Shown here piece after piece: positions 3,390-9,811 of a DNA stretch of 19,502 bases. The stretch spans positions 1-19,502 of the forward strand of contig LKMN01000013.1 in the NCBI GenBank assembly GCA_001563875.1, given 5' to 3'. Position 1 is the first letter of the stretch. Each line of letters opens with the position of its first letter. The DNA is from Nanohaloarchaea archaeon B1-Br10_U2g1 (GTDB lineage: Archaea > Nanohalarchaeota > Nanosalinia > Nanosalinales > Nanosalinaceae). A program made the translations under genes and the position numbers. The notes beneath the pieces were generated by a model, which made no database searches, was not told the DNA's origin, and saw only the letters and a list, made by a program, of their open reading frames with translations.

Positions 3390-3515
3390 ATGTCTACAGA
3401 AGCTGCAAAGCTTGGACAGTGCATAATATGTGGAGATAGAGTGTACAGAGAGGGAAAGCATATTACCTCTACTGAAGGCTACTGCCACAATATATGTCTA
3501 AAAGATACTGCCTAG
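3390..3515 (+). CDS. Small zinc-finger protein, 41 aa, CxxC-x18-HxxC (absent from ORF track)
   Basis: Hand translation MSTEAAKLGQCIICGDRVYREGKHITSTEGYCHNICLKDTA*; SD-like gaggggga upstream; AT-rich promoter region 3340-3370. Confidence 0.8.
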   Translation: MSTEAAKLGQCIICGDRVYREGKHITSTEGYCHNICLKDTA

Positions 3516-4157: not shown

Positions 4158-4793
4158 TTAACTTTTGTCTGTATACTCCTCCAGTATATCTGGGAACTCT
4201 CTGCCTCTTATCTGTCTGAGACCGAAGTCTTCCGCCCAGTTGAGAACTCCATTGTCTTCCGTGACCACTGTAGCATCCATCTCTTTAGCGAGTAGTAAGA
4301 GATCTAGATCTTCTCGAGAGTCTACAATACCTTTTCTCAGTGCTTCCTTGTAATCGTCTCTGAGATCTGATATAGCCACATCAGATTTTGAGTAGTATTC
4401 TTCCTCCGGCTCTTCTTCCATCTCTTCAAGTTCTCTTAAAGCCTTTTCCGATAGTCTGAGTCCTCTGTCAACTCTTTTTCTCATCTCTTCAACGAAGTCG
4501 TGCATTATCTCCCCGGAGACCTTTACTTCGTAACGGGTTGGAGATTTCTTGACTATCCATGTTTTCAGCTTGTCTTCGGTCTCCTGTTCTATCTTTCCGT
4601 CAAGTATTTCCATAAGCTCGTTGTATGTGGATGGAGGCATATAGCAGACTATATCTTTTCTGTCGGCCCGTTCTATAAGATCTATCAGACGGTCAACCGT
4701 GTTTTCAACAGGCTCGTTATCTTTCCTTATATGCTGGGTTAGGAATAACGAGGTGTCTACTACGAAGCTGTCTCGAAAGTTTTTCTCAGCCAT
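4158..4793 (-). CDS. RNA-free ribonuclease P (HARP; PIN-like, 'RNA ligase partner' MJ0950/Aq880 family)
   Basis: FVVDTSLF, YMPPS, KKSPTRYEV, MRKRVDRGLR, LRDDYKEALRKGIVDSREDLDLLLLAKE and VVTEDNG..WAE..GLR match HARP; ATG at 4793 preferred over GTG 4811. Confidence 0.9.
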   Translation of the reverse strand: MAEKNFRDSFVVDTSLFLTQHIRKDNEPVENTVDRLIDLIERADRKDIVCYMPPSTYNELMEILDGKIEQETEDKLKTWIVKKSPTRYEVKVSGEIMHDFVEEMRKRVDRGLRLSEKALRELEEMEEEPEEEYYSKSDVAISDLRDDYKEALRKGIVDSREDLDLLLLAKEMDATVVTEDNGVLNWAEDFGLRQIRGREFPDILEEYTDKS

Positions 4794-4826
4794 GGAAACG
4801 TTGTGGCCCACAAACTAATTTAGTGT

Positions 4827-5774
4827 TTACTGTTGAAGGTTTTGAGGTGCTTCTACATCTGTATCTTCTACTATATCTCGACCTCTTTCACGTACTGTGA
4901 CAGTGGTTACATTTAAGATGTCGGAGATCTCTCTCAGCGATCTTTCCTCTCCTTCATGGAACGCAGCTATATAGACAGATGCTGCAGCGATACCTTTTGA
5001 GGACTTACCAGAAATAGTTTCCTCGCTCGTCCTCTCTACTATTTCTCTGGCTTTTATAGCAGCTTCAGGAGTCAAACCGAGTTTGGCACAGAATCTTTCT
5101 ATATACTGTTCGGGTGGCGGAGGAACGATACGCAGATCTAGTTCACGTGCAATATACCGGTAGGCCTTTCCCACATCTCTTTTTTTCTCCCTCACTGTCT
5201 CCGATATCTCATCCAGAGTTCTAGGCTCCTGTTTTTCTCTCGCCGTGATGTATACTATGCCGCCAAGCACCGCGTTGAAGCTTCTGCCCGATAAAAGGTC
5301 TTTATCTCTGGCTTCTTCCAGTACTTGTTCCGATCTTTGTTGAACGTCTTTGGATAGATCCAGTTCGGTTACAGCTCTTTGAAGCTCTGTTAGTTCGTAG
5401 TATGATCGGTCTTTAACTTCAGGAAGCCATCTCTCAACCCCCTCATAGTCCGGCATAGTTATCGCTATAAGGAATATTCCTAAAGCGGTTACCGGTATTG
5501 AAAGACCTAGTAAAACCGCTGCCGCCACTAAAAGCTCTGAACTCACCGAGCAGTCTCTAAAGTCTTTATATAGAAGGTTAAATGTCAGAACAGATAGAAC
5601 AGGTAGAGCGAGTAGGGCTATGTACAGAGGCTGTTCGAGTAGCTCTACAGGTGTAAAGGCATGGTTCATCCCAGATACGGCTCCGATAAAAAGTCCAAAA
5701 AGTATGAAGACGGTACCATAGACGACACAGTTTAGACCTATATTTCTCCAAGCTGCTCTTTTACCGTAACTCAT
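4827..5774 (-). CDS. tfb: Transcription initiation factor IIB (TFB) core fused to an N-terminal multi-pass membrane domain; lacks the Zn ribbon
   Basis: Two cyclin repeats: GRS..VYITARE..EPRTLDEI..VGKAYRYIAREL and YIERFCAKLGL..SGKSSKGIAAASVYIAA..LREIS..VTTVTVRER. Residues about 12-106 form three hydrophobic segments; no CxxC...CxxC. Confidence 0.88.
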   Translation of the reverse strand: MSYGKRAAWRNIGLNCVVYGTVFILFGLFIGAVSGMNHAFTPVELLEQPLYIALLALPVLSVLTFNLLYKDFRDCSVSSELLVAAAVLLGLSIPVTALGIFLIAITMPDYEGVERWLPEVKDRSYYELTELQRAVTELDLSKDVQQRSEQVLEEARDKDLLSGRSFNAVLGGIVYITAREKQEPRTLDEISETVREKKRDVGKAYRYIARELDLRIVPPPPEQYIERFCAKLGLTPEAAIKAREIVERTSEETISGKSSKGIAAASVYIAAFHEGEERSLREISDILNVTTVTVRERGRDIVEDTDVEAPQNLQQ

Positions 5775-5885
5775 TTTCTTACACCTTTAGAACTGTTTTC
5801 AAAGCTTTTAACCACTATTTGTATTAGACAACAATCTTGTAGTCGAACGCTAAAGTTATTACTGAGGTTCGTAAATACCGTCTCT

Positions 5886-6611
5886 ATGGAAGGAAAAGTC
5901 GTTTTCATAACCGGAGGTTCAACAGGTATTGGAAAATCAACAGCAGAAAAGTTCTCTGAAAAAGGTGCAGAAGTAGTAATAGGAGATATAAACAAAGAAA
6001 AAGGCCAGGAAACAGCAGAAGAGATTGGAGCAGAGTTTAAAGAATGTGATGTAGCGGACTGGGAAAGCGTGAAGTTCGTTGTAGACAGTATTGTCGAAGA
6101 ATACGGCAGGCTTGACGTCGTGGTCAACAACGCCGGTATAGGATCAACGTCAACCATAGAAGAGATGGATAAAGAAGAGTGGGAAAAAATCATAGCTGTC
6201 GATCTGGACGGCGTGATGCACGGTACAAAAGCCGCGGCACCTCATCTAAAAGAGACTGAAGGATGCGTAATAAACACCGCATCTATATACGGACTCGTAG
6301 GAGACGTAGGAGCTACCGCATACAACGCAGCTAAGGGAGGCGTGGTAAACTTTACACGTTCTGTAGCGAACGACCTAGCAGAACACAACGTTAGAGTCAA
6401 CTCCATCTGCCCCGGATTCATTGACACACCTCTGATACAGGAGGCTATGGACGATGAAGACTTCAAGAACCACGTTCTCGGAGAAACACCTTTAGGGAGA
6501 GTTGCAGAGCCAGAAGAGGTAGCTGAAGTCATGGTCTTCCTTGCATCTGATAAAGCATCCTACATAACAGGAGCCAACATCCCTGTGGACGGTGGCTGGA
6601 CAAGCCACTGA
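5886..6611 (+). CDS. Classical short-chain dehydrogenase/reductase (FabG/glucose-1-dehydrogenase-like)
   Basis: TGGSTGIG Rossmann motif, NNAG, catalytic S...YNAAK, PGFIDTP, YITGANIPVDGG. Confidence 0.96.
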   Translation: MEGKVVFITGGSTGIGKSTAEKFSEKGAEVVIGDINKEKGQETAEEIGAEFKECDVADWESVKFVVDSIVEEYGRLDVVVNNAGIGSTSTIEEMDKEEWEKIIAVDLDGVMHGTKAAAPHLKETEGCVINTASIYGLVGDVGATAYNAAKGGVVNFTRSVANDLAEHNVRVNSICPGFIDTPLIQEAMDDEDFKNHVLGETPLGRVAEPEEVAEVMVFLASDKASYITGANIPVDGGWTSH

Positions 6612-8104: not shown

Positions 8105-8515
8105 ATGGAGCCCGGAGACCTTGAGGAAGGAGACTTGGTACTTTTCAACGACAGAAAGACTCCTTTAGAAGTAGTAGAAACAGGTGATGAAATTACGGTT
8201 AAAGGTCCTCACGGTGCTTTATACACTATCTATGGGGAGAATAACTCCCTACTGGTCTGTTCCAAAGACCAGAAACGTTACTCCTCTTACTGTGAAGAGC
8301 TGCGTAAGGTGGGCGAATGGATTGAAACTGATAACGGCTGGAGACACTCTAAATCAGACGCCGAGATCCTTATAGAAAGAAAGGATAACGGCTTTTGGAC
8401 GGTAAAAACTGTTGGTATCGATGAAGAGATCGATGTGCCTCTGTACGGTTTCACAGACAAGGAGTTCGCTAGAGAGGAGGCGGAGAAGTTTCTGGATAAA
8501 AATCCTGAGGGCTGA
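8105..8515 (+). CDS. Hypothetical two-domain protein (SH3/KOW-like beta N-terminus; Trp-containing C-terminal domain)
   Basis: Acidic ORF; DLEEGDLVLFNDRKTPLEVV is KOW-like; ATG at 8105 lies downstream of aaataaaag. Confidence 0.8.
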   Translation: MEPGDLEEGDLVLFNDRKTPLEVVETGDEITVKGPHGALYTIYGENNSLLVCSKDQKRYSSYCEELRKVGEWIETDNGWRHSKSDAEILIERKDNGFWTVKTVGIDEEIDVPLYGFTDKEFAREEAEKFLDKNPEG

Positions 8516-8575: not shown

Positions 8576-9811
8576 GTGGATAGTTTACTCTGGGATATAG
8601 AGCAGGAGGAGAAAGAAGAGTTAATCCGGTCTCTAAGACTGCGTTACGAGAATATAGACGAGATAAAGTCGGATACCGAGATACCTTACTCAAACCTGAA
8701 ACAACATGAAAACGGAGAGCTAAGATCTATAGGGCTTTCAAACGTTGCAGACCTTATACAGACTGTTAACAGTTCGGAATCGCGTTTTTCAGAGAGCTCT
8801 CCAGAGGATTTCATACTGAAAACCTTCGACTACTCCGAACCAAGAGTCCAGATACCTGAAGACCTCCAAAAAACACTTTTCAGAACTTTCGACGTAGATA
8901 CTGTAGAAGAGCTTACAGAAAGATCTCGTCAGACTGTTAACAGGATCAGAGTAGGCGATTCAAAAAGGATAGCTCTTGAAGATTATCAGAGGATATTTGA
9001 AGAGGTCAATGAAAAGCTGGATGAGAACTTTGAGGCTTCAGGAGTGCTTAAATACTCTGGAAACGGAGATGAGCTCTTTGAAGCTGATGCGGAACAGGTT
9101 GTAGAGATTCAAGGGATACGAGACAGCTTGGAGAAAATCGAAAGAGATGAACCTTACAAGACAGGTAGACTGAAACACAGTATAGACGTATTAGATAAGC
9201 CTCCGGAGCATGACAGAGATCTTATAAGACCTGAAGGAAAGACCGAGGGCTACGTCTACTCGGTTCTAGAGGAGCTAGGTCTGATGGAAAAATGGGGTGG
9301 ACAGGCTTCACCTTACCAGATACTGAAACAGCCTGAGTACTTCGAAATAGTTAGGAAAGAGCTGGAGAAGGATATTGACAAAGAAGAAGAAACAAGATAT
9401 AGCCGTGATGAACTAGTAGCTCTTCTTGATGATTATGTAGACAGACCTAGCAAGAGAGATATAGAAGAGAACAGTGAACTTCCCTCCTCAGGCACTTACG
9501 AAAACGTCTTCGGATCCTGGAACAACGCAATGTGGTGCGCAGGCTTCACGCCTCTAGAACAGATCTACTCCGAAGAAGAGCTTTTCACTCAGCTTTACGA
9601 ACTAAACGACAGCCTCGGAAGAATTCCTACACGGCAAGAGTTTATGAAAAACGGAGCTACAGCCAGCAGAAATGCTGTTGAAAACCATTTTGGAAGTTAT
9701 GAAGAGTTCGCAGAACAGGCTGGACTTTACGATATAGGTATAGGTGCTGAAGAAGCTTTAGGCAAGTATTATACATCTACAGAGTCGGAAACAGCTTACG
9801 CATCAGACTGA
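8576..9811 (+). CDS. Multidomain putative DNA-binding protein: HTH-like segments plus two C-terminal homing-endonuclease-associated repeats (HNH_repeat-like)
   Basis: Repeats YSRDELVALL..RPS..PSSGTYENVFGSWNNAMWCAG (9398-9546) and YSEEELFTQLYEL..LGRIPT..SRNAVENHFGSYEEFAEQAGL (9566-9727); Cro-like HTH patterns near the N-terminus. Confidence 0.75.
   Translation: MDSLLWDIEQEEKEELIRSLRLRYENIDEIKSDTEIPYSNLKQHENGELRSIGLSNVADLIQTVNSSESRFSESSPEDFILKTFDYSEPRVQIPEDLQKTLFRTFDVDTVEELTERSRQTVNRIRVGDSKRIALEDYQRIFEEVNEKLDENFEASGVLKYSGNGDELFEADAEQVVEIQGIRDSLEKIERDEPYKTGRLKHSIDVLDKPPEHDRDLIRPEGKTEGYVYSVLEELGLMEKWGGQASPYQILKQPEYFEIVRKELEKDIDKEEETRYSRDELVALLDDYVDRPSKRDIEENSELPSSGTYENVFGSWNNAMWCAGFTPLEQIYSEEELFTQLYELNDSLGRIPTRQEFMKNGATASRNAVENHFGSYEEFAEQAGLYDIGIGAEEALGKYYTSTESETAYASD

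Follow-up and report, generated by a model that had tools for sequence, protein, structure and literature searches.

A transcription factor B paralogue with a membrane domain in place of its zinc ribbon in Nanohaloarchaeota

Introduction

In all archaea and eukaryotes, transcription factor B (TFB) or its eukaryotic counterpart TFIIB links promoter-bound TBP to RNA polymerase, and both are regarded as soluble proteins. Membrane-tethered regulators such as SREBP and ATF6, ToxR and CadC and the anti-sigma systems keep a DNA- or factor-binding domain anchored at the membrane, which allows a signal there to control transcription. These are gene-specific regulators or sigma antagonists of unrelated folds, whereas the gene analysed here encodes a paralogue of a general factor, in which a TFB core is fused to an N-terminal membrane domain. 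It lies on the minus strand of contig LKMN01000013.1 of Nanohaloarchaea archaeon B1-Br10_U2g1 (assembly GCA_001563875.1). The whole of this 19,502-nucleotide contig was analysed and is called the window in the following; it is contig C25 of a 0.71-Mb assembly of 26 contigs with 96.75% completeness and 0.28% contamination.

In canonical TFB/TFIIB, TBP and promoter functions belong to the C-terminal domain, and polymerase binding and the stimulation of initiation to the ribbon and linker (PMC3025549). The two cyclin repeats of canonical archaeal TFBs, represented by Pyrococcus woesei TFBc and by the three TFBs of the genome itself, align end to end with those of the membrane form, which also keeps the PRT..E motif, the VT.VT.R helix-turn-helix and the residues Y110 and W116. 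However, canonical TFB has a Zn ribbon, a B-reader and a basic B-linker where the membrane form has a membrane domain of about 110 residues, and the latter is further set apart by an acidic core, by its separate clan in the tree and by a score below the NCBIfam cut-off. The converse truncation is found in Sulfolobus TFB3, a truncated paralogue working beside full-length TFB, which keeps the ribbon, lacks the C-terminal helix-turn-helix and activates transcription (PMC6101594); the membrane form keeps the core and has no ribbon. Plant pBrp/BRP1 is a TFIIB relative on the plastid envelope which becomes nuclear only when proteasomal turnover is blocked (PMC7865254). It is like the membrane form in being a TFIIB-family protein at a membrane surface, away from the nuclear site of action, and unlike it in being eukaryotic and controlled by proteasomal turnover. 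Full-text literature searches, with most subscription journals outside their coverage, retrieved no membrane-integral TFB, and an architecture in which a membrane domain takes over the position of the polymerase-recruiting head of TFB appears to be undescribed.

Results

Domain architecture

The gene is a single uninterrupted open reading frame (ORF) of 315 codons plus stop. Its architecture and conservation, purifying selection, the full-length start, the presence of paralogues and the retention of core motifs all emerge from the sequence analysis, and it most probably encodes an integral-membrane TFB paralogue. Pfam recognised two TFIIB repeats (PF00382, E 9.6e-33) in the protein and no Zn ribbon (PF08271) at E<=1, and the only cysteines within residues 1-126 are C16 and C75. 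The NCBIfam TFB model (PRK00423) aligned residues 127-309 to its positions 127-310 of 312, with a score of 166 bits against a curated cut-off of 384, so that the protein falls short of full-length membership. For residues 1-126 there was no credible family in Pfam or NCBIfam, the best match being Anthrone_oxy at E 0.096. The protein thus consists of about 126 residues without a match to any family, followed by an entire TFB core.

In an alignment with the three canonical TFBs of the genome, the ribbon cysteines and the EWRAF..R.G block of the B-reader had no counterpart in the protein and hydrophobic segments stood in their place. The preliminary description of this DNA had read the gene as a TFB core fused to a transmembrane domain that replaces the Zn ribbon, and Pfam, NCBIfam and this alignment all bear that reading out, with the B-reader missing as well. 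It had also seen a likeness to the end of the B-linker in the sequence next to the hydrophobic part, in which ERWLPEVKDRSYYELTELQR corresponds to residues 114-133. This likeness is real, as Y110 and W116 align with the canonical 'Y.R.+KW' that closes the B-linker, though it is confined to the last approximately 15 residues and the protein does not qualify as carrying a B-reader/B-linker. The same junction was modelled by AlphaFold2 (AF2) with a predicted local distance difference test score (pLDDT) below 50 at residues 110-121.

Membrane domain and predicted topology

Kyte-Doolittle hydropathy in 19-residue windows reached peaks of 2.22 (residues 16-34), 1.92 (49-67) and 2.38 (85-103), matching the three hydrophobic segments first proposed for this ORF, and its maximum over residues 130-315 was 1.18. 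AF2 gave a pLDDT of 80.6 for the full-length model and likewise 80.6 for the N-terminal domain model, with a predicted TM-score of 0.73 for the latter, and in both models segment 3 was split into helices 77-88 and 92-106 with a break at 89-91. A Foldseek search of the N-terminal model against the PDB yielded 0 matches at E<=0.001; the best match had E 3.3, and TM-scores of at most 0.48 to NqrD chains do not settle whether segment 3 is a hairpin or a single span. The Atlas search with residues 1-122 gave no usable match.

Lysine- and arginine-rich flanks of membrane segments lie in the cytoplasm according to the positive-inside rule. Over 17 sequences, the lysine plus arginine totals were 36 in the N-tail, 8 in loop 1, 34 in loop 2 and 40 in the first 15 residues past segment 3; four of the 21 family members (P0015, L011, L014 and L022) were left out of this count, as their segments 1 and 2 merged at the threshold used. 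By this rule the N-tail and loop 2 are predicted to be cytoplasmic, and with both of them inside the core would also be cytoplasmic only if segment 3 formed a hairpin, an arrangement that would leave every lysine- and arginine-rich part inside. The putative hairpin suggested in the preliminary description agrees in this way with the charge distribution and with the helix break in the AF2 models. On balance we judge a cytoplasmic core to be fairly probable, mainly because the residues that form its TBP and DNA signatures stay conserved.

The membrane part is itself conserved in sequence. Y19, E80, G90, G99 and Y110 are invariant in 15 aligned members and G112, W116 and P118 nearly so, a constraint that goes beyond what a bare anchor would need.

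Cyclin core

Residues 125-310, the core, can be aligned with P. woesei TFBc (1AIS, 1D3U) at E 2e-34. Among 61 columns that are invariant in 11 canonical TFBs, 26 have their residue preserved in 80% or more of the membrane-type proteins, including P184-R185-T186..E189, G202..Y205-R206...R210, P218/P221, G256 and T290/T293/R295. The PRT..E motif, which relates to TBP, is invariant in the membrane-type clan, and the genome holds a single TBP gene, whose product the core may bind. A complex prediction for TBP with core residues 122-315, run without controls, returned a score of 0.00 and was given no weight either way.

Paralogues and phylogeny

The TFIIB model found four genes in the genome, namely the membrane-type gene and three TFBs with CxxC..CxxC ribbons (367, 312 and 325 amino acids). 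As three ribbon-bearing TFBs are present, the separate canonical tfb looked for exists in triplicate and the membrane form is an extra paralogue, not a replacement. It had also been suggested that the core might pair in trans with a ribbon-only partner. The PF08271 search of the organism's own genome gave just the three TFBs and one sub-threshold match (E 6e-4) in a short ORF, which appears to resemble ribosomal protein L40e, and this idea found no candidate there.

A maximum-likelihood tree was computed from 201 core columns. It comprised 16 TFBs of the membrane type and 12 with a ribbon, and every source genome encodes the membrane form. In this unrooted tree the membrane-type cores formed one clan with branch support of 100/99. 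A short ribbon TFB of 273 amino acids (L035:1462-2283:-, genome G052) was placed between the membrane clan and the canonical TFBs. It consists of a CxxC..CxxC ribbon and about 30 residues that run straight to 'YSGIEKW' and the core, without the B-reader/B-linker block, and it has four of the eight clan-specific residues (G112, G209, P219 and L287). The junction motif Y-S-G-I-E-K-W is common to this protein and the membrane form, though unlike the latter it keeps the ribbon and has no membrane segments. Its relatives (L061-L065) occur in 6 of the 8 genomes of the sister family f4. The short ribbon TFB may resemble the ancestor of the membrane form. Because this intermediate has a ribbon and no B-reader, loss of the B-reader may have preceded the exchange of the ribbon for the membrane domain, as far as an unrooted tree can suggest an order.

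Distribution of the family

A 132-residue N-terminal query was searched against 60 relative genomes, and full-length counterparts were identified in five further genomes. A sixth match, in genome G030 (E 0.002), with four internal stops and an 83-amino-acid frame, was rejected as chance, and so was a separate match in Electrothrix covering 23 residues only. A profile of six N-terminal domains (A2) matched seven of the 70 genomes of the order, the organism's own genome included; among these were 3/49 in its own family and 3/8 in the sister family f4, and there were no matches among the ten genomes of family f3. Against 1.84 billion representative proteins, A2 retrieved ten at E<=0.001, nine of them with 306-329 amino acids and one an 86-amino-acid fragment. 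A search with the core retrieved 30 proteins at E<=1e-20; the eight without PF08271 all had a hydrophobic N-terminus and the other 22 were all ribbon-bearing. In total the family comprises 21 distinct full-length members of 304-338 amino acids with the same architecture, and a family scan at E<=0.01 found TFIIB in 15 of 15 members and the Zn ribbon in none of the 15. The expectation that a transmembrane domain joined to TFIIB would recur in other Nanohaloarchaeota is thus borne out. The named records with homologues are metagenome-assembled genomes of Candidatus Nanohalarchaeota and Ca. Nanohalalkaliarchaeum, the runs containing the stretch are salt-lake and soda-lake metagenomes, and public databases already list membrane-type proteins, under no name that sets them apart.

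Authenticity, start codon and selection

Proteins at least 90% identical to the membrane-type TFB come from NCBI, Logan and ENA assemblies (four near-identical proteins, from four sources). A 6399-nt contig from a second sample spans positions 4700-5900 with 5 differences and no indel, and a 438-nt contig from a third sample, a soda lake, covers 5332-5769 with 43 substitutions and no gap. The junction at 5400-5460 is bridged by other contigs too, with no joints or indels reported; these are assembled contigs, not reads, and the best-matching sample may be the source sample. Among the strain differences listed, 36 inside the ORF could be classified as 23 synonymous and 13 mostly conservative, with 57 more outside this classification.

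The internal methionine from which a soluble core might be translated, Met107, is isoleucine (ATA) in close strains in two runs, and position 107 is variable across the family; an internal start is therefore no feature of the gene. As synonymous divergence (dS) was near or beyond saturation, and saturated in 3/6 comparisons, so that its ratios of 0.13-0.25 are rough, selection was judged on the proportions of nonsynonymous (pN) and synonymous (pS) differences. In one same-genus pair these were 0.317 and 0.678 for the N-terminal domain and 0.092 and 0.500 for the core, and in a second pair 0.207 and 0.683 for the N-terminal domain. Both the N-terminal half and the core are under purifying selection.

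Locus and neighbouring genes

Coordinates of the gene, its parts and its flanks are collected in Table 1. Within the divergent intergenic region, reading by eye picked out as candidate signals a TATA-like TTAAAAG at 5805-5811 (minus strand), 30 nt ahead of the ATG, and an AGGTG at 5782-5786 (minus strand), 7 nt ahead of it. In three GC-rich homologues a TTTTAAG, again a candidate found by eye, stands 22-24 nt ahead of the first in-frame ATG. The PIN_5 gene downstream may be co-transcribed with the TFB paralogue. The PIN_5, SDR and MFS genes and two small ORFs of the window had no counterpart in five homologue loci.

Table 1. Membrane-type TFB gene, its parts and its flanking features in the window
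Feature	Position	Strand	Basis
Membrane-type TFB paralogue, whole ORF (P0001), 315 aa plus stop	4827..5774	-	ORF, Pfam, NCBIfam
N-tail, residues 1-11 (K5, R6, R10), conserved W+ motif ahead of segment 1; predicted cytoplasmic	5742..5774	-	family alignment, K/R count
Hydrophobic segment 1, residues 12-34, conserved C-[LV]-x-Y-G, Y19 invariant	5673..5741	-	hydropathy, AF2, alignment
Loop 1, residues 35-48, almost without K/R; predicted outside	5631..5672	-	K/R count
Hydrophobic segment 2, residues 49-68	5571..5630	-	hydropathy, AF2
Loop 2, residues 69-80, K/R-rich in the family, ends at invariant E80; predicted cytoplasmic	5535..5570	-	alignment, K/R count
Hydrophobic segment 3, residues 81-106, conserved G90-x3-P94-x4-G99; re-entrant hairpin or kinked single span	5457..5534	-	hydropathy, AF2, alignment
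Junction, residues 107-126, Y-x-G-[IV]-E-[KR]-W-x-P; remnant of the B-linker end, Y110/W116 kept, basic residues gone	5397..5456	-	alignment, AF2, charge
TFIIB cyclin repeat 1, residues ~130-209, invariant P184-R185-T186..E189	5148..5387	-	Pfam, alignment
TFIIB cyclin repeat 2, residues ~221-297, helix-turn-helix V-T-T-V-T-V-R (T290, T293, R295)	4884..5114	-	Pfam, alignment
Divergent intergenic region, 111 bp, shared with SDR gene	5775..5885	.	sequence read by eye
PIN_5 ribonuclease (E 1.7e-66), downstream, 15 nt past the stop of the TFB paralogue	4158..4811	-	Pfam

Several other genes were observed near this gene or its homologues. A 136-amino-acid soluble protein with no Pfam match (8105-8515, plus strand) lies 0.4-2.3 kb from the membrane-type TFB in three genomes and adjoins a canonical tfb match in G052; it is lineage-wide, often near tfb genes, and since it is present in 54 of the 70 genomes of the order it is not specific to the membrane form. 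At loci L014 and L022 (same-genus genomes G033 and G061) a long frame resembling the C-terminus of an aminoacyl-tRNA synthetase, recognised by eye, adjoins the membrane-type TFB and ends 3 nt from it in L022, a synteny that is absent from the window. The start of the TFB paralogue is overlapped by 4 nt by a Ser/Thr-rich ORF of 140 amino acids (5771-6193, minus strand), which is mostly antisense to the SDR gene (5886-6611, plus strand) and is probably no gene. Elsewhere in the window, a 41-amino-acid ORF without a Pfam match (3390-3515, plus strand) has CxxC and CxxxC pairs and could be a small zinc-finger protein, and a 411-amino-acid protein (8576-9811, plus strand) ends in two homing-endonuclease-associated HNH repeats.

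Discussion

We infer the topology of the membrane-type TFB, its binding of TBP and DNA and a negative or tethering role from the features described above. The approximately 110 N-terminal residues would form a compact helical membrane domain of two transmembrane helices and a third long hydrophobic segment. They would stand where a canonical TFB has its Zn ribbon, its B-reader and the greater part of its B-linker, which bind the polymerase and help to open the promoter. A flexible tether of about 12-15 residues would join this domain to the complete two-cyclin core. With the N-tail, loop 2 and core on the cytoplasmic side and a hairpin of segment 3 inserted in the membrane, the core would meet and bind the single TBP, and TBP-bound DNA of the TFB recognition element and TATA box, at the inner face of the membrane. 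It would compete there with the three canonical TFBs, through titration of TBP or because it occupies or tethers promoters. A signal or a partner would then act on the conserved membrane domain, the likely input side. As ribbon and linker are missing, the core is expected to take hold of TBP, free or in complex with a promoter, and to leave the polymerase unrecruited, which would make it a competitor or a tether between promoter and membrane. To our judgement, a membrane-tethered TFB core that binds TBP and promoters, is incompetent in recruitment and acts as a sequestering or tethering regulator has about an even chance of being the right description. The more specific proposal, that a sensor-like helical bundle controls a ribbon-less core capturing the sole TBP or the promoters, at the inner membrane face, so that membrane state or host contact sets transcription either globally or for a class of promoters, is tentative and seems to us rather doubtful.

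A number of observations weigh against a TBP- and promoter-binding core at the inner membrane face. In the core, 35 of the 61 canonical-invariant columns are not kept in the membrane clan, the recognition helix is changed (E291 to T, and Y298 to variable, small residues) and many canonical-invariant basic residues are absent. The clan cores are net acidic, with a median charge of -8.5 against +8.5 for ribbon-bearing cores of the same genomes; one ribbon-bearing paralogue is acidic too, at -4. The shift of 17 units is divided among the linker remnant at 110-126 (7.7), repeat 1 (3.5) and repeat 2 (5.8), and the replacement of the canonical basic run in the linker remnant fits a loss of B-linker function. 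Since the cores have turned acidic and lost basic residues, their DNA affinity may be reduced or altered. At the level of the lineage, the patchy distribution (7/70 genomes) makes the role of the gene dispensable, and the only same-genus genome, 79% complete, had no A2 match. No conserved gene neighbour was found at the homologue loci examined, and the runs listed for positions 4700-5900 include no RNA dataset. As for the topology, segment 3 with its 26-30 residues across the family is short for a full helical hairpin, so a hairpin would have to be re-entrant, and if it were instead a plain single span, with the N-tail and loop 2 inside, the core would lie outside the cell.

That last arrangement would give a protein of three full spans, N-terminus in and C-terminus out, with the TFB core displayed as a surface module in a non-transcriptional role such as contact with the haloarchaeal host or the binding of external DNA or protein. 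It would follow from the lysine and arginine totals, which assign the N-tail (36) and loop 2 (34) to the inner side and loop 1 (8) to the outer, as one further span exports the C-terminus; 26-30 residues are normal for one tilted helix, and acidic cores stripped of basic residues are expected where DNA binding is relaxed. However, TBP-facing and helix-turn-helix motifs that are invariant across the clan would be difficult to account for in an exported domain, the 15 residues past segment 3 are as rich in lysine and arginine (40 in 17 sequences) as the inside loops, and the conserved G-x3-P-x4-G in the middle of the segment coincides with the helix break of AF2. We know of no exported TFIIB-fold protein, and consider display of the core at the surface unlikely. 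An artefact or decaying gene, be it a chimeric assembly, a pseudogene or a gene read from the internal start to give a soluble core, is most improbable and found no support. The chimera and the one-off without selection, either of which would have undone the preliminary description, do not fit a junction bridged without indels, near-identical proteins in NCBI, Logan and ENA and a conserved family of 21 members of constant length with N-terminal pN far below pS, and the unconserved M107 speaks against the internal start.

A core inside the cell could serve other ends than competition. It could be an active, membrane-located initiation factor on which pre-initiation complexes assemble and which reaches the polymerase through TFE, through the N-tail or loop 2 or through a partner, so that selected genes, for example genes encoding membrane proteins, would be read at the membrane; the retained core motifs, the conserved W+ motif of the N-tail and conserved loop 2, both cytoplasmic by charge, and the E291T change, which suggests a promoter subset of its own, would all suit such a role. 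Against this, the linker remnant has lost its basic residues, the PF08271 search of the genome gave no ribbon-only partner, and the ribbon and B-reader/linker, which are needed for binding the polymerase and for stimulating initiation (PMC3025549), are all missing, so that we regard an active factor as quite unlikely. Alternatively, the core could be stored at the membrane in an inactive state, until a protease cutting within or next to the membrane frees it, soluble and without a ribbon, to compete with the canonical TFBs. The flexible, low-confidence tether at 110-121 would permit this, the genome has one M50 site-2 protease and two rhomboids, and eukaryotic membrane-tethered precedents exist, such as plant BRP1 (PMC7865254). 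However, M50 and rhomboid families were present in 14 of 14 control genomes, so there is nothing specific in their presence here, neither a cleavage motif nor a linked gene for a protease came to light, and release would leave polymerase recruitment unrestored; a stored, releasable regulator is accordingly improbable in our view.

If the membrane-type TFB does act as a tethered competitor or promoter tether, it would represent a new mode of regulating basal transcription, by subtraction through the titration of TBP or promoters, or by location. If its membrane domain also works as a sensor bundle, it would be an archaeal counterpart of anti-sigma and membrane-tethered control, built from the basal factor itself. 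The small size of both family and protein makes topology, binding of TBP and DNA and competition with canonical TFB directly testable. For Nanohaloarchaeota, with their tiny genomes, few recognisable regulators and host-contact lifestyle, such a protein would be a rare clue to regulation.

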